32,000 nucleotides of DNA from the NCBI RefSeq assembly GCF_000019605.1, contig NC_010482.1, forward strand, positions 60,001-92,000. Reading direction: 5' to 3'. Origin of the DNA: Candidatus Korarchaeum cryptofilum OPF8. GTDB taxonomy: Archaea > Korarchaeota > Korarchaeia > Korarchaeales > Korarchaeaceae. This document shows positions 2,523 through 19,520 of the stretch, one piece after another; positions within the stretch are counted from its first letter, which is position 1, and each line of letters opens with the position of its first letter. The notes beneath the pieces were generated by a model. That model did not search any database and had not been told where the DNA came from. It saw only the letters and a list, made by a program, of their open reading frames with translations. Position numbers and translations under genes: made by a program.

Positions 2523-3410
2523 TCAGAGATCCACGACCTCGAGGGGCATGAAATTCCTTATCCTCTCTATAACCTCCGGCATGCTCGATGGCATTATGAG
2601 GGCTCCTGCGGCATGCTCATGCCCCCCGCCTCCAAAAGCTTCAGCTAATTGAAGAGCTGTCAGAGGGGAATCGGCTCTGCTCCTTATTGAGAGCCTCAAG
2701 AGGCCATCCGATCCTCTAGTCACCGTACCTAATAGCTTGTAGCTGTTGGCGACGAGTTGGATGATGGGTACTAGGTAGGAGGGGTAGCTCTTTATCCTCA
2801 GCAATATTGAATCTCCGCCCGGAAGTCCCAAGATTTTATCAATAAGATTTCCATATTCTCTCATTATTAGATTAACCTCTGACTTTATTGAGGGAAGCTC
2901 TATTAAAGATTCAGCAGAACTTGGGGGGTTCCTGAGGATATCCCTGCACACATTGATGAGCTTCCTCCTCCTCTCCTTGAAGATCTTCCTCACAGCCGAT
3001 GTGAAGAGAGCCGATTTTAAATCCATCTTGCCGGAGTCAATCTCATCCGTGAGCCTGACTGCTTCCGAGTATCTCTCTATTCCAGGTTCCCACTCGCCGA
3101 TGAGCTCATACACTATCCTAGCTGTCGATGGGGAATCCACCCTCAGTATGGGGATCGCCACTCTATCCAGAGCCGAGGAGTTGGAAACGTGGTGGTCTAT
3201 GAGCACCCTGGCCCCTCCCCTGGGGGGAGGTAGATCTAGCACTATATCATAGCTTTCCTCGCTGTTCTTTATCTCATAAGGGGCCGAGAAGTGGATTTCA
3301 AGACCCTCCGGCTTCACTATCATCATTAGGGAAGCAGACAGGAGACCGTCTAAGTCCTCCCCATGACTGCATATTGACAGCCTTTCCCCCTTAAGTATCT
3401 CCTCGAGCAT
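2523..3410 (-). CDS. DHH/DHHA1 family phosphoesterase (NrnA-like)
   Basis: Motifs in order: HGEDLDG, DLPPP, LIDHH, and the C-terminal DHHA1 GGGGHEHAAGA. Confidence 0.8.
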   Translation of the reverse strand: MLEEILKGERLSICSHGEDLDGLLSASLMMIVKPEGLEIHFSAPYEIKNSEESYDIVLDLPPPRGGARVLIDHHVSNSSALDRVAIPILRVDSPSTARIVYELIGEWEPGIERYSEAVRLTDEIDSGKMDLKSALFTSAVRKIFKERRRKLINVCRDILRNPPSSAESLIELPSIKSEVNLIMREYGNLIDKILGLPGGDSILLRIKSYPSYLVPIIQLVANSYKLLGTVTRGSDGLLRLSIRSRADSPLTALQLAEAFGGGGHEHAAGALIMPSSMPEVIERIRNFMPLEVVDL

Positions 3411-14883: not shown

Positions 14884-14960
14884 TGGCGCCCGGGCCGGGA
14901 TTTGAACCCGGGTCTGGGGCTCGACAGGCCCCTATGCTGGCCGGGCTACACCACCCGGGC
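14884..14960 (-). tRNA. tRNA-Asp (anticodon GTC), genomically encoded CCA, no intron
   Basis: Reverse complement GCCCGGGTGGTGTAGCCCGGCCAGCATAGGGGCCTGTCGAGCCCCAGACCCGGGTTCAAATCCCGGCCCGGGCGCCA folds as a cloverleaf. It has a 7-bp all-WC acceptor stem, anticodon stem GGGGC/GCCCC with loop CTGTCGA, and T arm CCGGG-TTCAAAT-CCCGG. Confidence 0.95.
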
Positions 14961-14985: not shown

Positions 14986-14993
14986 TTATAAAT
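14986..14993 (-). promoter_or_regulatory. TATA box for tRNA-Asp, overlapping the stop codon of the upstream Endo-IV-like gene
   Basis: The minus strand reads ATTTATAA. Centre is about 29 nt upstream of the mature tRNA 5' end (14960). Confidence 0.5.
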
Positions 14994-15831
14994 CTTTCAC
15001 CTTGCTGAGCGCGCTCATGTAGAGGGCCCTCATCTTAACGGAGTCCCTCTCTAGCAACGGGGACTCGGATATTACGATCCATCTCAATCCATATTCCGCT
15101 ATGATCTCAGCTAAGGGCTCGAATGGAGGTCCATAGCCCGAACCCAGATCGTGGTGCATCCTCTCTCCAATTCCCGATTTAGCGAGCTCGACCTCGGTGA
15201 AGTGTATTATGAGACCGTTCAGATCCCCCAGCCTCCCCTCAATGGTCCTAAGGATCCTCTCATAATCCCCTCTGCCCCTTATGCTTCCTCCCTCCCTCGC
15301 GTGGATGTGCGCGAAATCTATAGTGGGCCTCACTCCATCCACCTCCTCAGACATCCTCAGAACCTCATCCAAGGATCCCAGTTGGGATGGCTTACCCGTC
15401 GTCTCAGGTCCTAGCTCCAAATTTATCCCGAGAGAATTCAGTCCATCCCTTACCCTCTTCAGCGCTTCTATAGCTGCCCTAAGGGCATCTTCGCCACTCA
15501 TCTTCCCATAGTAACCTGGGTGGAATGTAATATGGCCTGCACCCATCTTGCTAGCGGCTATTCCGGAATCTATCAGCCTCTTGATACTAGCCTCCCCCTT
15601 CTCCTCGGAGCAGAGGTTTATCGCATATGGGGCATGTAAGGAGAGCATTATATCGTTTTCAGAGGCTTCCTTCCTCACCCAGGAGAGTACATCTTCATTC
15701 TTCGGTATCGCCCTCACAGCCTGATACTCCATGGCATCTAGACCTATTTCCCTCAAGTAGGAGAAGGCCCTCTCCTTCGGAGCATCTATCGGATAGCCAG
15801 CGGGCCCGAACCTGATCCTATCGATTAGCAC
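14986..15831 (-). CDS. xylose-isomerase-like TIM-barrel protein, endonuclease IV (AP endonuclease family 2)-like
   Basis: LSLHAPYAINLCS, ITFHPGYY, IDFAHIHA and LIIHFTE resemble the metal-ligand strands of Endo IV-type TIM barrels. GTG start. Confidence 0.65.
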   Translation of the reverse strand: MLIDRIRFGPAGYPIDAPKERAFSYLREIGLDAMEYQAVRAIPKNEDVLSWVRKEASENDIMLSLHAPYAINLCSEEKGEASIKRLIDSGIAASKMGAGHITFHPGYYGKMSGEDALRAAIEALKRVRDGLNSLGINLELGPETTGKPSQLGSLDEVLRMSEEVDGVRPTIDFAHIHAREGGSIRGRGDYERILRTIEGRLGDLNGLIIHFTEVELAKSGIGERMHHDLGSGYGPPFEPLAEIIAEYGLRWIVISESPLLERDSVKMRALYMSALSKVKDL

Positions 15832-16009
15832 GATAATTCCAACACTCCCTAAAAGATAAAGGTTCCCTTGTCAGAAGATTCATCATAGGAGAATATTAAT
15901 AAACTCACCATTTATTATGTTATGGTAAATAATGCATGATATTCCTTCATTTCTATAGAATGAGGTTGAAAATATTAATGAAATGGTGAAGGTGCGCTCA
16001 TCCGCGTGG

Positions 16010-16023
16010 CGAAAGGTATTTAT
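16010..16023 (+). promoter_or_regulatory. BRE/TATA-like element upstream of the GC-rich structured element
   Basis: cgaaagg + tatttat. The TATA centre is about 26 nt upstream of 16046, the first base of the 12-bp closing helix. Confidence 0.35.
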
Positions 16024-16045
16024 CCCACATCACCCCATAAATCAC

Positions 16046-16206
16046 GGGTCACCCGGCCCGCTACGGGCTTAGCCCCTTCGTGGGCTATCGCGACATAGTG
16101 CGGGGGAAGGGGCCCTAGATTGGCCCCGATCACCGGCGTCCCAAAGGACGCCACCCCCTCCGTACTTTGCGCCGGGTGACCCCACCTCCGCCTCCCTCGG
16201 TGGAGA
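16046..16206 (+). ncRNA. candidate structured RNA (independent ncRNA or long structured 5' leader of the radical-SAM gene); family not recognised
   Basis: Sharp rise in G+C relative to the flanks. Hand-folded helices: 16046-16057/16171-16182 (12 bp perfect), 16056-16060/16064-16068, 16070-16075/16082-16087, 16097-16106/16156-16166, 16109-16114/16122-16127, 16135-16141/16146-16152. A TATA-like box lies about 26 nt upstream of 16046. Ends are approximate. Confidence 0.4.
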
Positions 16207-16208
16207 GA

Positions 16209-17273
16209 ATGTGGTTCCTGAGGCCGGATTGTCTCACAGCATTTGAGGAAAGGGAGATAAGGGATTCCATACCCCGTTACATAGATGTAGTTGAGGGCAG
16301 GAAACTGCCCCTCTTCAAGCTCTCGAAGATAATAAGGCTTGAGCCCACGGACGATCTCTGGAAAGCCCATGAAGAAGGATTGAGGATCCTCAGGGAGATT
16401 TTGGAGAAGGATGAGACCCCCAAGAGGGGAGAGGAGGGGATATCCCTCCTGGATGTTAAAGCATATCTGTCCCTAGAGCTCGCAGGGAAATGTAGGTTCT
16501 GCGAGTGGAGATGCGGCGTCAACAGGATCGAGGGAGAATCCGGAGCTTGCAGGGTAAAAGAAACGAGGGTCTCGAGCGCCTTCATCCACATGGGAGAAGA
16601 GCCTCCAGTGAGCCCATCAGGTACGATATTCTTCTCCGGCTGCAACTTCAAATGTATATACTGCCAGAACTGGGATATATCCCAATTTCCCGAATCCGGT
16701 AGGGTAGTATCCCCTGAGAAACTGGCAGCTCTGATGGATGATCTCAGGAGGAGGGGCGTCAGGAACATAAACTTGGTCGGCGGGGAGCCGACTCCCAATA
16801 TTCATACGATAATGCTCTCCCTCAGATACGCATCTGAGGATTTTCCAGTGATATGGAACTCGAATATGTACATGAGTGAGGAGGGCATGAAGCTCCTACT
16901 AGGTATCGTAGATCTCTGGTTGCCTGACTTCAAGTATTGGGAGGATGAATGCGCCAGGACCTTGAGCGGGATTCCGAGATACTCCGAAGTCGTCAGGAGG
17001 AACTTATCCATGGCCTACGAATTCCCGCCCGGTGAAATTATAGTCAGGCATCTGGTCCTGCCAAATCATGTAGAATGCTGCACTAAGCCGATACTGACAT
17101 GGGTGGCGAGGAACATACCGAGGGCCCTCGTGAACATAATGGACCAGTATAGGCCGGAGTATAGAGCGCATCAAGTACCCCGGATGAATAGGAGGGTCAG
17201 CTCTGATGAGATGAGGGAGGCGTTCGAACTCGCTGATAGCCTCAAGTTGAGATGGAGATCGGTCAGCCGGTGA
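16209..17273 (+). CDS. radical SAM protein, PflX-like (putative glycyl-radical/pyruvate formate-lyase activating enzyme family, COG1313)
   Basis: CRFCEWRCGVNR...GACRV...HMGEEPPVSPSGTIFFSGCNFKCIYCQNWDISQ is the COG1313 signature including CxxxCxxC. ATG 16209 is preferred. The track's TTG 16167 would add a poly-Pro peptide read through the GC-rich element. Confidence 0.8.
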   Translation: MWFLRPDCLTAFEEREIRDSIPRYIDVVEGRKLPLFKLSKIIRLEPTDDLWKAHEEGLRILREILEKDETPKRGEEGISLLDVKAYLSLELAGKCRFCEWRCGVNRIEGESGACRVKETRVSSAFIHMGEEPPVSPSGTIFFSGCNFKCIYCQNWDISQFPESGRVVSPEKLAALMDDLRRRGVRNINLVGGEPTPNIHTIMLSLRYASEDFPVIWNSNMYMSEEGMKLLLGIVDLWLPDFKYWEDECARTLSGIPRYSEVVRRNLSMAYEFPPGEIIVRHLVLPNHVECCTKPILTWVARNIPRALVNIMDQYRPEYRAHQVPRMNRRVSSDEMREAFELADSLKLRWRSVSR

Positions 17274-17832
17274 CTAGGGAAAGGAGCTTCCATTTGAACT
17301 CCTCAAGGCATCCATCGTTGAGGAGGAAGTGATCTGCATAAGCGAGGGCATCCCCGAGATGGAAGGTCTCTATCTCCTCCCTGTCCTCCCTCAGGAATTC
17401 CTCATAGCTCCCCCTATCGAAACCCTCCCTCTTCCTGAGGGACGTTCTGATGAACCTCAACCATTTAGAGGATAATATTGCTATTGTTATCACGTCTTCC
17501 CCAAACTCTTTTTTGAATTCATCAATTTCCTCGATATTTCTTATACCATTTACGACATAGCATCGGGGGGGAGGGGATCTCTTGATGGTCTCTATAGCTA
17601 GCTTGGCGATAACGCTAGCCCCCCTCTCCCTCCTTAGCTCAATACCAACAGATCTTAAGCTCTCCCTGGTTTTCCTCAACCCTCTCCTCTCAACCTCCTC
17701 GATTAATAAATCGCTCATCCTTATGATCTTATATCCCAGAGCTTCCTCGAGCGCTTTAGAGGCCTCATCCTTCCCGCTCCCGGGCAGTCCCACTATCAGG
17801 ACGATGGGCTTGCCTAGGCACCCAGATCCCAT
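17263..17832 (-). CDS. UPF0200-family P-loop kinase-like protein (dephospho-CoA kinase/adenylate kinase fold, function unproven)
   Basis: IVLIVGLPGSGKDEASK Walker A, VVNGIRNIEEIDEF and a C-terminal ADHFLLNDGCLEEFK match the archaeal UPF0200 layout. ATG 17832 is preferred over the track's TTG 17889. Confidence 0.7.
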   Translation of the reverse strand: MGSGCLGKPIVLIVGLPGSGKDEASKALEEALGYKIIRMSDLLIEEVERRGLRKTRESLRSVGIELRRERGASVIAKLAIETIKRSPPPRCYVVNGIRNIEEIDEFKKEFGEDVITIAILSSKWLRFIRTSLRKREGFDRGSYEEFLREDREEIETFHLGDALAYADHFLLNDGCLEEFKWKLLSLVTG

Positions 17833-17904: not shown

Positions 17905-18720
17905 ATGATCTCGATAATAGAGGTTGAAGCGACCAGTCAGGGGGACGGAGTGATACCTTTCACGGGGCCTTTCTTCAGGGCCGCTGTGCTGAGATCGATA
18001 TCCTCTCAGGATCCTCTGCTCGCAAAAGCCCTGGAATTATCCTCCAAAAAGATATTCGTTGAGGCCCTCAGAAAGGAGAGGAAACAGATGCCTTGCGGCT
18101 CCTTAGAGGAGCCTGTTTACATGGGCTCGGAGTACAGGGGATCGATAATAATATTTAATGATAATGTGATAAGCGATGCAATAAAATCATGGGTATTCAA
18201 GAAACCGACTATAACAATAAAAGATATTCCATTTAAAGTGACATCATACTCGCAGCAGGAGATAAATATACTTGACTTCATTCAGGAGAGTCCGTGCAGG
18301 AATTTCAGGCTCCGCTTCCTCACACCCACGTGCTTCAAGAGGACGACTTCTCAGTACTGCTACCTCTATCCAAACCCCAGGCTTATAGTCTCCTCTCTCG
18401 CTTCTGCCTGGAATGCCCTCTCACCCAAGAAAGGCCCGGAAACTAGATTAGTCGCTACCTGGGCCGATCTCAGCGTTGTAGAGACTGGATATGAATTATG
18501 CACAACTAAACCGGTGGAGATGAGTGGGGAGAAGACATTCGTCGGTTTCATGGGATGGGTGAATTATAAGGTGATAGACCATCCGGAATGGCATAGATCG
18601 TCGCATGAGGAGATGGCCACTTGGCTGGCTACTTACCTCATGTTCGGGGAGCTGATAGGAGTAGGATACATGAGGAACATGGGGTTCGGAAGGATAAAAT
18701 TTGAAGTCAAGAGGAAGTAA
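17905..18720 (+). CDS. cas6: Cas6-like RAMP endoribonuclease (orphan: no CRISPR array or other cas genes in the window)
   Basis: C-terminal glycine-rich loop GVGYMRNMGFGRIKF, core FRLRFLTPTCF...YPNPRLIVSSLASAWN and FVGFMGWVNYKV, 271 aa. All are typical of Cas6. No His in the N-terminal half. Confidence 0.75.
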   Translation: MISIIEVEATSQGDGVIPFTGPFFRAAVLRSISSQDPLLAKALELSSKKIFVEALRKERKQMPCGSLEEPVYMGSEYRGSIIIFNDNVISDAIKSWVFKKPTITIKDIPFKVTSYSQQEINILDFIQESPCRNFRLRFLTPTCFKRTTSQYCYLYPNPRLIVSSLASAWNALSPKKGPETRLVATWADLSVVETGYELCTTKPVEMSGEKTFVGFMGWVNYKVIDHPEWHRSSHEEMATWLATYLMFGELIGVGYMRNMGFGRIKFEVKRK

Positions 18721-18723
18721 TCG

Positions 18724-19116
18724 TTAAATAATGGCCTCCAGCAGATCCTCCCCTGCTCTCTCCAGAAGGAGGATCCCGCTCCTTAACTCAATTGCCTTAT
18801 GATCTCTAGCCCCGAATATCCTTTTAAGCTCCCAGAAGACCCTCCAAGTGCTAACAGCGTCCTTGCAGGAGGAGATGGAGACTGTTATGCTTCCGGACTC
18901 CGGCCAGGTATGAACGGCAGCATGAGATTCCCCTATTATCGCGATGCTCAGGACCCCTCCATTGGGTTTCCGCATCGTTATTATATCGAAAAGCGTGAGC
19001 CCGGAATTCATGACGGATTCTATCAATGCGCTCTCAACGAAACTGATATCCTCGAGTAGATTCCTGCTGACGCCGAAAAGCTCGCCGATCACATGGTACT
19101 CGAAGGCCCTCTCCAT
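18724..19116 (-). CDS. speH: pyruvoyl-dependent S-adenosylmethionine decarboxylase proenzyme family (SpeH type; could be the arginine-decarboxylase paralog known in Crenarchaeota)
   Basis: 130 aa with self-cleavage/active-site context IIGESHAAVHTWPESG. SD GGAGGTGAGG lies about 7 nt upstream of the ATG. Confidence 0.85.
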   Translation of the reverse strand: MERAFEYHVIGELFGVSRNLLEDISFVESALIESVMNSGLTLFDIITMRKPNGGVLSIAIIGESHAAVHTWPESGSITVSISSCKDAVSTWRVFWELKRIFGARDHKAIELRSGILLLERAGEDLLEAII

Positions 19117-19520
19117 TTTTTACCTCACCTCCGCCTCCCTATACATAAAACGACTCACAATTTATTTAAAAAGATTACGAGGAGCCGCCTAATTGCCCTA
19201 AGTTTGAGGATAAGCTCTCAGAGATCTTAATTTTGCTGTCAGATCGGGGGCCAACTTGACTCTTTCGAACTCTACACCAATAAAAATAGCGAATTCAATA
19301 TAATGAGATTTTCTGAGATTTATGGGGGTCAAACAAGATAAAATAGAAAGCATTCCCTAGGATGAACCTCCATTGAGCCCAATTAACTGAGAGGGGCTCA
19401 AGAATAAACCTTCAATTATCTATTGAACTGATCCCCCCCGTATGAGGGGAGGGGGATTATATTAAGCTCCATCTCGAGTAGCCCGCATAGCCTCCACTAA
19501 ATGCATCATCCTGAGGGTGA

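Follow-up and report, generated by a model that had tools for sequence, protein, structure and literature searches.

The question raised by this locus is whether the intergenic gap in front of a PflX-like radical-SAM gene of Candidatus Korarchaeum cryptofilum OPF8 holds a functional RNA and, if it does, what that RNA might do. The gap lies in a stretch of 32,000 nucleotides (contig NC_010482.1, positions 60,001 to 92,000; called the window here, with its first letter as position 1), and an earlier note made from these letters described an abruptly GC-rich, multi-helix RNA element within it. Most archaeal mRNAs are leaderless or have short leaders. As far as we know, structured leaders that act in cis on an mRNA occur very rarely in archaea, and we know of no structured cis-acting leader or sensor RNA described from Korarchaeia. 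On comparative sequence evidence we conclude that the element is a real plus-strand folded RNA that is conserved in Korarchaeia and lies outside the catalogued RNA families. Our preferred reading, to which we give a probability of roughly one half, is that it forms a new lineage-specific cis-acting leader of the PflX-like mRNA, 129-155 nt in length, that would display a surface for a trans-acting factor.

A GC-rich folded element ahead of the radical-SAM gene

The start of the Endo-IV-like gene on the minus strand (15831) is separated from the radical-SAM ATG at 16209 by 377 nt, and a recount agrees with the earlier note on this length. The abrupt rise in GC content that the note described is also real. 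Specifically, the GC fraction of 100-nt intervals is 0.68-0.72 over 16050-16200, relative to a mean of 0.485 (sd 0.062) for the 32 kb, and the RNA element at 16046-16182 forms the highest GC peak of the whole window (72% versus 48.5%), with the tRNA-Asp gene second.

Folding of plus-strand positions 16040-16215 with RNAfold gave a minimum free energy of -102 kcal/mol and a z-score of -6.35, with none of 200 shuffled sequences folding as well, while the minus strand exhibited a weaker fold (z = -3.74). The fold z-score, together with a covariance model and conservation, delimits a structured core of 137 nt on the plus strand (16046-16182) that is closed by helix P1. The promoter, the parts of the element and the radical-SAM gene discussed below are likewise on the plus strand. 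The P1 5' strand GGGUCACCCGGC (16046-16057) pairs with the 3' strand GCCGGGUGACCC (16171-16182) through 12 bp that are all Watson-Crick in the window, and the pair counts given below for P1 apply equally to both strands. In addition to P1, RNAfold places the hairpin 16070-16075/16082-16087 and helices P4, P5 and P6 at the positions that had been drawn by hand. P1 stays paired in the prediction even at 85 °C, with probabilities of 0.71-0.98.

Regarding strand, the element contains many G-U pairs, and the only polymorphism within it among near-identical strains, C16158T, turns a G-C pair into a G-U pair. The covariance model R1 scores the window at 127 bits (E 1.5e-20) on the plus strand versus 25 bits on the minus strand. 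The wobble pairs, the polymorphism and the model scores thus bear out the plus-strand assignment of the earlier note, and we rejected a minus-strand RNA on the basis of the wobble pairs, the covariance-model score and the z-score.

Conservation and covariation of the element in Korarchaeia

Every Korarchaeia relative that was fetched has the element ahead of its orthologue of the PflX-like radical-SAM gene. These relatives form four clades, A (the clade of the window) to D, and their radical-SAM proteins are 54-79% identical. Element length ranges from 129 to 155 nt, and fold z-scores are between -2.9 and -6.2 in 11 relatives. The covariance model finds a single copy in the window with filters off, and among the loci fetched every true match lies upstream of a radical-SAM orthologue with one copy per locus; no second copy was found in any sequence searched. 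At one locus (L095) the upstream gene is RHH/CcdA-like instead of Endo IV and the element is still present. The PflX loci of other archaea, used as negative controls, have neither a covariance-model match nor a GC spike.

Note that an exclusive location upstream of the radical-SAM gene applies to loci fetched from two scans. The scan of genome contigs with a protein alignment used conserved peptide patterns that are common to PflX homologues of all archaea and bacteria, and among the matches listed it gave one Korarchaeia-like locus (L009), with other loci serving as the negative controls. The scan of metagenome contigs with a P1...P5 DNA pattern gave at least 120 matches, which were mostly chance matches in GC-rich soil contigs. 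Sorting the listed metagenome matches with the covariance model recovered six loci (L131, L143, L148, L195, L174 and L124), and two others (L218 and L192) were rejected as chance matches. The register of one alignment (A7) was set by hand, and another alignment (A8) was fitted to the model.

The earlier note had proposed that compensatory changes be sought in P1 and in the helices from P4 inward, and these are observed in P1 and P5 across all four clades. When P1 and P5 are scored on 14 distinct sequences from the four clades, 89.8% of cells are paired, and there are 11 pair changes that involve both sides, relative to 5.0 +/- 1.4 in shuffles (0 of 500 reach 11) and 0-3 in slid controls. In clade A, P1 is paired in 99% of cells with 5 of its 12 pairs changed on both sides. 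Across the four clades, where the helix has 11-15 GC-rich bp, 7 of 14 pairs exhibit compensatory changes and CCC.G/C.GGG is invariant. Five inner pairs are invariant or nearly so amid neighbours that covary freely. P1 as first drawn is therefore reproduced by RNAfold, covaries and is common to all clades. The same is true for P5 (GGGGCC-CUAGAUU-GGCCCC, 16109-16127; stem 16109-16114/16122-16127), which is in the RNAfold structure and, alone among the interior elements, occurs in all clades. All of its clade-A cells are paired (100%), and its compensatory changes are C-G to U-A in loci L222 and L219 and G-C to A-U in L219. By direct reading, the P5 loop follows the pattern C-NNN-R-UU, with the ends C...R-U-U kept and the middle variable in clades A and D and in loci L174 and L124; exceptions are L009, where the loop ends ...GUC, and clade B, which has a longer CCUAUUUA loop.

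The remaining helices of the original drawing fare less well. P6 (GGCGUCC-CAAA-GGACGCC, 16135-16152; stem 16135-16141/16146-16152) is in the RNAfold structure and is 96% paired in clade A. Its loop varies, it has one wobble change and its register is shifted in L095, but none of its pairs has changed on both sides. Hairpin B (UAGCCC-CUUCGU-GGGCUA, 16070-16087) is likewise folded by RNAfold and is 94% paired in clade A, but it does not covary and is disrupted in L095. Both are conserved only in the clade of the window. An alternative hairpin GGGC-UUA-GCCC at 16065-16075, which is 98% paired in clade A with one compensatory change, competes with hairpin B, and four GCCC/GGGC segments of the element are able to form mutually exclusive hairpins. 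The first hairpin that had been proposed, 16056-16060/16064-16068, reuses the last two pairs of P1, is paired in 72% of clade-A cells and is not conserved. P4 is reproduced by RNAfold but as a whole is paired in only 64% of cells in clade A, so it is not a conserved feature. Its inner strand CGGGGG (16101-16106) pairs with 16156-16162 (CCC-U-CCG) in the window and in loci L131, L089 and L091, and it is in this inner helix that the strain polymorphism C16158T produces a G-U pair. The strand 16156-16162 is part of the conserved C-rich tract CCCCCUCCGUA (16154-16164), identified in the clade-A alignment and containing a CCUCC motif; CCCUCCG within this tract is nearly invariant in clade A while its proposed partners vary. 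For interior helices beyond P1, P5 and P6 these statements rely on RNAalifold and explicit pair counts over approximately 15 distinct sequences, among which GC-rich alternative pairings compete. Unpaired tracts inside the element are identical among clade-A relatives, and the flank upstream of the TATA box is too divergent to align by eye. Between clades A, B, C and D the interior architecture and the junction sequences differ.

Taken together, the fold z-score, the GC outlier and above all the conservation with covariation indicate that the element is more than a product of chance. Maintenance of P1 and P5 by compensatory change despite protein identity as low as ~54% further indicates real selection on the element. 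These results bear on the view that there is no functional RNA here at all, the GC-rich segment being a chance palindrome, a decayed MITE or an N-terminal coding extension from TTG 16167. The terminal inverted repeat, of 12 bp, does bear a superficial likeness to MITE ends. However, the element is single-copy in the window and present once per locus, occupies the orthologous site in all four clades and has evolved by compensatory change, and a MITE was rejected on these grounds. Regarding the coding extension, an in-frame ORF from TTG 16167 exists and is used by some database models, namely P0003 (368 aa) and P0014 (449 aa). However, the peptide that would precede the ATG reads PPPPPSVER in the window, TPTSASPVGK in L089 and RTSTSFGDS in L148, so neither frame nor peptide is kept in relatives, and the extension was rejected. 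Gene callers on 8 metagenome contigs place the start at ATG 16209, yielding a 354-aa product (16209-17273), and an exact-product look-up found this protein on record while the 368-aa version was absent. The earlier note had held that a true start at TTG 16167 would undo its reading, and the unconserved upstream frame argues against such a start. On the sequences compared, the absence of a functional RNA is already contradicted by the covariation and the frame analysis, and we regard it as extremely improbable. The database models of 368 and 449 aa appear to run through the RNA and probably need correction.

Comparison with catalogued RNA families

The element had been described as not assignable to a known RNA family, and a cmscan-type search with the 4227 covariance models of Rfam 15 (including riboswitches, RNase P, SRP, 5S, tRNA, Hgc RNAs and ribozymes) agrees with that description for every clade. 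At gathering thresholds the whole window contains only the tRNA-Asp. A permissive scan of 15850-16350 gave a best E value of 0.59 (hya, 19.7 bits versus the 56.8 needed), and the elements of clades D, B and C gave nothing better than E 0.13. ARAGORN also reports only the tRNA-Asp (14884-14960) over the window, and a tRNA-like identity was rejected as the P5 loop has neither U33 nor a purine at position 37 and does not fit the T-loop consensus. A number of other candidates were rejected because their helix order or signature motifs do not fit by eye and no model matches: RNase P (type T/A), the SRP Alu domain, 5S rRNA, H/ACA and C/D sRNAs, an intron-containing tRNA, HDV-like and hammerhead ribozymes, T-box and Y RNA. 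By eye, no canonical K-turn and no tandem G-A is present in the P4/P5/P6 junction (GG-AA-P5-GAUC). Our search of the literature on Korarchaeota riboswitches and noncoding RNA, PflX, COG1313 and archaeal RNA motifs found nothing relevant.

As a separate observation on gene order, a stand-alone cas6 endoribonuclease gene lies two genes away from the element in most loci. There is no CRISPR array in the window, and L095 keeps the element with no cas6-like gene detectable at the corresponding place, so a CRISPR link was set aside as synteny only.

The element as the probable 5' end of the radical-SAM mRNA

A BRE/TATA-like promoter composed of CGAAAGG and TATTTATC is present at 16010-16025. The earlier note had centred this box about 26 nt upstream of the element, and the distance to G16046 is 22 nt. 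Its position is conserved: a TATA-like 8-mer occurs 20-26 nt before the first base of P1 in 15 of 15 sequences, with a purine-rich BRE ahead of it. From standard archaeal promoter geometry we infer that transcription starts at approximately G16046. The linker between P1 and the ATG in clade A is 26-36 nt and C/U-rich, with no TATA and no conserved T-run, and there is no conserved oligo-T or terminator-like site in the interval between element and ATG across the loci compared. A second promoter for the mRNA after the element is not conserved among these loci, and no separate one was found in clade A. The conserved TATA before P1 and the lack of a conserved terminator or second promoter together suggest that the element would be the 5' end of the mRNA.

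The earlier note had left a choice between a leader and an independent ncRNA. On the latter view this promoter yields a stable RNA that acts in trans, in that transcription ends ahead of the gene or an enzyme such as an endoribonuclease cuts the RNA out of the 5' UTR, and the link of this RNA to the gene is no more than transcriptional. A GC island ahead of even the tRNA in the window is typical of stable RNAs in thermophiles, and the uniform length (129-155 nt) with ends clamped by P1 would also suit such an RNA, as would a T5 run between element and SD in L095, a hairpin followed by a U-rich tract in L174, and the cas6 gene near most loci as a source of processing. However, an independent ncRNA gene would have both its own promoter and its own terminator or 3' end, and here the promoter is present and a conserved terminator-like site is absent, as is a second mRNA promoter in clade A. 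In addition, the different neighbourhood in L095 has not parted the element from the radical-SAM gene, no second copy occurs in the sequences searched, and L095 keeps the element without a detectable cas6, whose link is one of synteny. A long leader, with its 5' end and co-transcription deduced from these features, fits better than an independent ncRNA, and we consider a trans-acting RNA unlikely.

If transcription does start at or next to P1, as inferred for 15 of 15 sequences, then the 5' end of the mRNA would be base-paired. This would also be the case if the element were a purely structural 5' stabiliser, that is, a heat-stable helix-capped domain that protects against 5'-to-3' exonucleases or against decay that depends on the 5' end, or a spacer between promoter and RBS, with no sensing involved. 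The core is predicted to be folded at 85 °C, and the drift of the interior between clades is what would be expected if stability outweighs shape. Against this, one hairpin would suffice for such a role, and no other gene in the window has a leader of this kind. Moreover, the P5 stem and loop ends C...RUU are kept across most clades, the five inner P1 pairs are (nearly) invariant amid freely covarying neighbours and several unpaired tracts are unchanged in clade A, which together point to sequence-specific recognition. We therefore view a purely structural role as doubtful.

A predicted clade-specific hairpin at the Shine-Dalgarno sequence

P1 is followed by a pyrimidine linker (16183-16198) that is conserved in most of clade A and contains CACCUCC and then GCCUCC. 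The Shine-Dalgarno-like GGUGGAG follows at 16199-16205. It had been described as immediately upstream of ATG 16209, but a gap of 3 nt separates it from the start codon. Other genes of the window use GGUG/GGAGGUGA Shine-Dalgarno motifs, which indicates that CACCUCC mimics the 16S 3' end. The best hairpin of this mimic with the Shine-Dalgarno pairs 16186-16192 with 16199-16205 (7 bp including one G-U), and in most of clade A an equivalent hairpin begins 3-4 nt after P1. Of the 10 distinct clade-A sequences, 9 keep CACCUCC(R)CCU(C/U)C and L222 has lost it, and in most of the clade GGUG follows. Clades B-D have no such hairpin. For the Shine-Dalgarno region of the window, pairing is predicted with a probability of 0.54 at 37 °C, which falls to 0.40 at 85 °C; values are 0.36-0.54 in clade A, where they amount to approximately 0.4-0.5 at 85 °C, and at most 0.25 in clades B and D. 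No pairing that competes with P1 was found. The occlusion of the Shine-Dalgarno suggested in the earlier note is thus observed as a predicted hairpin in most of clade A, but its loss in L222 and absence from clades B-D mean that it cannot be a universal mechanism. This also means that the only concrete regulatory step is specific to one clade.

The same hairpin is what an RNA thermometer would use, with translation switched as heat melts either the anti-SD/SD hairpin or the entire leader, and this option had also been raised. In clade A the hairpin is predicted to be ~40-55% formed at 70-85 °C, which is a responsive range. However, known thermometers such as ROSE and fourU consist of a short hairpin with mismatches that covers the SD or AUG, unlike a GC-rich domain of 137 nt, and a weak hairpin at either site is not the conserved feature here. 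Instead the conserved core is predicted to remain unmelted at 85 °C (P1 at p 0.7-0.98), while the SD hairpin is limited to clade A, is lost in L222 and is marginal at 85 °C. This combination makes a thermometer very unlikely.

The downstream enzyme and a candidate function for the leader

The 354-aa protein contains Pfam Radical_SAM and Fer4_12 domains, with no Pfam domain in its first 138 residues, and no NCBIfam family matches at its cut-off. PflX-type radical-SAM homologues number in the thousands across archaea and bacteria. The AlphaFold model (pLDDT 87) has as its nearest fold the E. coli pyruvate formate-lyase activating enzyme (3c8f; E 9.5e-10, TM 0.75 on the target), and a fold search with the model returned radical-SAM barrels only, with no recognisable RNA-binding domain. 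Judged from this model, this is an uncharacterised enzyme related to the PFL-activase fold. Because no RNA-binding domain is recognisable in the enzyme, simple autoregulation is without support. The more specific possibility of autoregulation by the enzyme through a substrate mimic was rejected for this reason and given that the closest fold is PFL-activating enzyme, the substrate of which is a protein.

Control of the radical-SAM gene is probably the function of the leader. One form of such control would be a metabolite riboswitch, in which a P1-closed aptamer binds SAM, SAH, 5'-deoxyadenosine, methionine or a pathway product and the CACCUCC/GGUG hairpin acts as a translational platform; a riboswitch on a SAM-dependent enzyme had been one of the options in the earlier note. 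The location fits well, as all members lie in the presumed 5' UTR, between the TATA box and the start of a single gene family. Also congruent with a riboswitch are the multi-helix domain closed by a covarying P1, the conserved unpaired nucleotides in clade A, the SD-sequestering hairpin that adjoins P1 and the mutually exclusive hairpins available to the four GCCC/GGGC segments. However, the binding core of validated riboswitch classes is their most conserved part, whereas here helix topology and junctions are not conserved over the four clades and only P1 and P5 are common and covary. This difference in interior architecture and junctions argues against one conserved ligand pocket and weakens the small-molecule idea. 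A P1 of 11-15 GC-rich bp that is predicted to be formed at 85 °C also makes its ligand-dependent opening implausible. In addition, clades other than A lack the expression platform, none of the known riboswitch models matches even weakly, and the function of the gene gives no hint of a ligand. A metabolite riboswitch consequently appears rather unlikely to us, and a platform for a protein or other factor is more likely than a classical riboswitch.

In the cis-acting leader that we prefer, the P1-clamped domain would display the P5 hairpin with its C-NNN-R-UU loop, and in the clade of the window the conserved unpaired tracts CUUAG, GGAA, GAUC and CCCUCCG would add to the recognition surface. This surface would be bound by a hypothetical factor acting in trans, for which a protein is more probable than a small molecule. 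Occupancy of the surface would set ribosome access to the start site, which in clades A, B and D follows after 20-36 nt. In the clade of the window this access could be controlled through the pyrimidine tract, where CACCUCC would pair with the GGUG(G/A) Shine-Dalgarno in a hairpin predicted to be marginally stable at growth temperature. The fully paired 5' end would probably also shield the mRNA from 5'-end-dependent decay.

If the leader is regulatory, then it would add a new RNA family and would be a case in a hyperthermophile of a leader that is folded at ~85 °C with a ribosome site that can still be switched. It would also give a starting point for work on what PflX-type radical-SAM enzymes do. 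A bolder variant, which we consider doubtful though not far-fetched, is that the element is a sensor RNA, be it a new riboswitch class with a ligand linked to the chemistry of the PflX enzyme, a P5-loop site for a dedicated regulator or an RNA partner of the enzyme. Such a sensor would help to reveal the function of a radical-SAM family that is widespread yet orphan.

Comparison with known systems

Several known systems share individual features with the element. HgcC-G and their relatives are high-GC ncRNA genes of AT-rich hyperthermophiles that were found by GC-content screens. The element resembles them in being a sharp intergenic GC island in a thermophile with a very stable predicted fold. 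However, Hgc RNAs are independent genes, whereas the element has no conserved terminator, no separate mRNA promoter and a strict linkage to one gene, and the Hgc families in Rfam do not match it. The ompA leader is an example of a bacterial stabiliser stem-loop at the 5' terminus of an mRNA, and the likeness here is a helix that would begin at approximately +1 and leave the 5' end base-paired. By comparison the element is far bigger and multi-helical, and it retains loops and invariant helix positions for which a stabiliser would have no use. In common with ROSE and fourU thermometers the element has a Shine-Dalgarno within a hairpin whose predicted stability at growth temperature is marginal, but its conserved core does not melt, its SD hairpin is clade-specific and there is no sequence or Rfam similarity.

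A further comparison is with the general class of riboswitch-type leaders that sequester the Shine-Dalgarno. To our knowledge only a few riboswitch classes, such as TPP and fluoride, have been reported from hyperthermophilic archaea. Like these leaders, the element is a 5'-UTR domain with a covarying P1 ahead of one gene family and, in the clade of the window, with an anti-SD/SD hairpin. Unlike them, it has no Rfam match, its junction core and topology are not conserved and its P1 is too stable for a switching helix. Finally, archaeal autoregulatory leaders bind proteins, with L7Ae recognizing a K-turn in its own 5' UTR and ribosomal protein L1 binding to its mRNA. The element differs from these leaders in having no visible K-turn signature and in preceding an enzyme of PFL-activase fold with no recognisable RNA-binding domain. 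What it shares with them is a conserved hairpin with sequence-specific loop positions near the RBS, and a protein-binding leader of this type is our favoured working model.

A GC-rich fold upstream of the radical-SAM gene

The gap between the minus-strand Endo-IV-like gene (14986-15831) and the ATG at 16209 that opens the radical-SAM gene measures 377 nt, and the jump in base composition that the earlier note placed near 16046 was also measured: the first part is AT-rich (28-30% GC), and from about 16046 GC content is 68-72%. Relative to the window mean of 48.5% (sd 6.2%; 100-nt windows, whole 32 kb) this is the top peak. The sole further non-coding GC peak in the 32 kb, second-highest in the window, is tRNA-Asp (GTC; 14884-14960, or 14887-14960 in the Rfam match, minus strand, Rfam 59.4 bits). 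The neighbourhood of this tRNA may hold an assembly break or vary among strains: three metagenome contigs (L005-L007) end there, roughly 90 nt beyond the stop of Endo IV. The plus strand of 16040-16215 folds at -102 kcal/mol in RNAfold (z = -6.35; 0 of 200 dinucleotide shuffles as good), and the minus strand is less stable (z = -3.74). On the window sequence, RNAfold reproduced the helices previously drawn by hand, namely P1 (16046-16057/16171-16182), hairpin B (16070-16087), P4 (16097-16106/16156-16166), P5 (16109-16127) and P6 (16135-16152). The feature is real, and the coordinates given for it earlier are essentially right.

Conservation and covariation of the element

Our comparison took in orthologous loci at protein identities of 79, 74, 65, 64, 63, 62, 57, 56, 55 and 54%, together with at least six further loci from a metagenome DNA-pattern scan sorted by covariance model; the comparative results rest on about 15 distinct sequences. 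These loci form clade A (the window, L131, L089, L091, L092, L093, L143, L148, L222, L095), clade B (L096, L097), clade C (L009, L174, L124) and clade D (L219-L221). Another pattern-scan match, L192, carries many hairpin repeats at 1-400 (TTTGCCGAGGGCCC...GGCCCTCGGCAAAG, with T-runs between); it is an unrelated metagenome contig and its repeats are unconnected with the element.

In every orthologous locus among the matches listed, a GC-rich element 129-155 nt long immediately precedes the radical-SAM start. Synteny is mostly kept (Endo IV, element, radical-SAM, AAA_17 kinase-like, cas6, AdoMet decarboxylase); L095 has an RHH/CcdA-like gene upstream and other genes downstream as well, but the element still precedes its radical-SAM gene. 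PflX homologues of other archaea and bacteria (L010-L043, L083) showed no covariance-model match and no upstream GC spike, and a search of the window with all filters off found a single copy. Among the matches listed, the element is strictly linked to one gene family in one archaeal class.

When P1 and P5 were aligned across all four clades (14 distinct sequences, register set by hand), 89.8% of cells formed standard pairs, and both partners had changed in 11 of the 21 pairs, versus 5.0 +/- 1.4 after shuffling (0/500 shuffles reached 11); with the partner strand shifted 1-3 columns, just 0-3 such pairs were left. Compensatory changes include U-A to C-G, A-U to G-C and, in L222, G-C to A-U in P1, and C-G to U-A (L222 and L219) and G-C to A-U (L219) in P5. 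Five inner P1 pairs (CCC[G/A]G with C[C/U]GGG) show little or no variation. In the P5 loop the 5'-end C and 3'-end R-U-U persist around freely varying middle bases, with partial exceptions in L009 (...GUC) and clade B (longer loop).

Within clade A (11 sequences fitted to the covariance model), P1 is paired in 99% of cells with 5 of 12 pairs compensatory, P5 in 100% with one pair changed on both sides, and P6 in 96% with no both-side change. P4 did not fare so well: it is paired in 64% of cells, one pair changes on both sides in one sequence, and RNAalifold favours a 3-bp long-range CGG/CCG helix over it. Hairpin B (94%) lacks covariation and is disrupted in L095; the hairpin that competes with it, GGGC-UUA-GCCC at 16065-16075, reaches 98% with one compensatory change. 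The first hairpin of the earlier note (16056-16060/16064-16068) shares two base pairs with P1 and is paired in 72% of clade A cells without covariation. Predicted topology varies by clade: clade B is rod-like, and in clades C and D an inner multiloop holds a CCCC-loop-GGGG hairpin immediately before P5. All relatives fold better than shuffles (z -2.9 to -6.2).

The strand assignment held up as well. G-U/U-G pairs are frequent, the covariance model scores 127 bits on the plus strand versus 25 on the minus, and C16158T, the sole variable position within the element among otherwise identical copies from different hot-spring samples, converts an inner-P4 G-C to G-U, whereas several sites vary in the initial 50 nt of the intergenic gap. 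What is conserved here is a structured RNA on the plus strand, its P1 and P5 covarying.

The element as the probable 5' end of the radical-SAM mRNA

All 15 sequences conserve the BRE/TATA-like box noticed earlier, a TATA-like octamer and purine-rich BRE 20-26 nt before the first P1 base, with an AT-rich stretch after it. By standard archaeal promoter geometry, transcription would start at G16046 or a few bases away. In clade A the 26-36 nt from P1 to the start codon are C/U-rich and lack both a TATA box and a conserved T-run. Because the radical-SAM mRNA thus has no other visible promoter, we infer that the element is its 5'-terminal domain. A trans-acting ncRNA, processed or terminated, is accordingly improbable, since a terminator scan found none and clade A offers no separate mRNA promoter. 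Two features might each terminate or attenuate transcription in a single lineage: in L095 a T5 run (2985-2989) in the loop between the anti-SD mimic and the Shine-Dalgarno (SD)-like motif, and in L174 (minus strand, about 3090-3130) a strong hairpin, CCGGGGGAUCCUCCCCCGG, with a U-rich tract after it, lying between element and start codon. Sister sequences (L124) keep neither.

That the element is an artefact or coding sequence is scarcely credible. The in-frame extension from TTG 16167 (...VTPPPPPSVER-M) is not coding; it owes its PPPPP run (frame 16167-16208) to CCACCUCCGCCUCCC, which reads CCA CCU CCG CCU CCC, and the same nucleotides give TPTSASPVGK in L089 and RTSTSFGDS in L148. Eight hot-spring metagenome contigs have the 354-aa product of ATG 16209 on record, and the 368-aa product of TTG 16167 is not recorded. 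Some public orthologue models (P0003, 368 aa; P0014, 449 aa) are N-terminally longer and apparently read through the element; as the upstream frame is not conserved, their starts are probably mis-annotated.

Ribosome-binding region

In other window genes the start is preceded, at a distance of 4-10 nt, by GGUG, GGUGA or GGAGGUGA, so that CACCUCC should correspond to the organism's anti-SD, presuming the usual archaeal 16S 3' end. GGUGGAG (16199-16205) is separated from the ATG by 3 nt rather than abutting it, and the best SD hairpin joins it to 16186-16192. The tract CACCUCC(R)CCU(C/U)C occurs in 9 of 10 distinct clade A leaders, with GGUG 5-9 nt further on, giving a 4-7-bp hairpin; the mimic is lost in L222 and absent from clades B, C and D. 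Thermodynamic extrapolation to 85 C predicts P1 pairing of 0.71-0.98 (clade A), 0.78 (B) and 0.77 (D), and SD-region pairing of 0.36-0.54, 0.23-0.25 and 0.13, respectively. The SD occlusion suggested previously is therefore predicted for most of clade A as a marginally stable, lineage-specific add-on, and on these models is not a conserved function of the element core. An RNA thermometer, also raised earlier, is very improbable with an SD hairpin so restricted.

Possible function and gene context

We give a probability of about one half to a cis-regulatory leader that binds a factor. The P1/P5 domain would be the surface read by a trans-acting factor, and in clade A the adjoining anti-SD/SD hairpin would be a plausible output. 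Three patterns in the alignments favour a recognition surface over a metabolite pocket: invariant positions within an otherwise covarying P1, an invariant P5 hairpin with fixed loop ends, and single-stranded tracts conserved in clade A around an interior that varies between clades. A passive stabiliser is unlikely, since it would not need the P1 invariants, the fixed loop ends or the conserved single-stranded tracts. A riboswitch, one of the options raised in the earlier note, is slightly less likely still: conservation would be expected to peak in its metabolite pocket, whereas the interior here varies between clades.

The radical-SAM protein has a Radical_SAM/Fer4_12 core (Pfam), and among its named homologues those of Korarchaeota MAGs are closest. 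No NCBIfam family reaches cut-off (best partial matches: glycyl-radical activases, NrdG) and the PDB holds no sequence relative. The AlphaFold model (pLDDT 87, pTM 0.90) best matches E. coli pyruvate formate-lyase activating enzyme (3c8f, E 9.5e-10, TM 0.75 on target); its roughly 115 N-terminal residues, which match no Pfam domain, are mostly helical and lead into a Cys-rich loop. Pfam and fold searches revealed nothing suggesting RNA binding or pointing to a ligand.

Downstream, the radical-SAM gene (plus, end 17273) and the kinase-like gene (minus, end 17263) converge with an 11-nt overlap, and gene callers start the latter at 17832 (189 aa) rather than at the TTG of a 208-aa ORF. A stand-alone cas6 homologue (17905-18720, plus; Pfam CRISPR_Cas6; TIGR01877 75 bits, above cut-off) keeps its place two genes away from the leader in clades A, B and D, with an unrelated 250-aa gene there in L095; the 32-kb window contains no CRISPR array. 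The S-adenosylmethionine decarboxylase gene (AdoMet_dc, Pfam; 18724-19116, minus), three genes from the SAM-dependent enzyme, is followed by about 400 nt of non-coding sequence (19117-19520).

Relation to known RNA families

At Rfam 15 gathering thresholds tRNA-Asp alone was found in the whole window, a permissive scan of 15850-16350 gave a best E of 0.59, representatives of the three other clades had no Rfam match, and our literature searches found no description of the element. The earlier view that it is not assignable to a known RNA family thus extends to four clades; as an RNA family the element is new, though its general type, that of structured 5' leaders, is well known.
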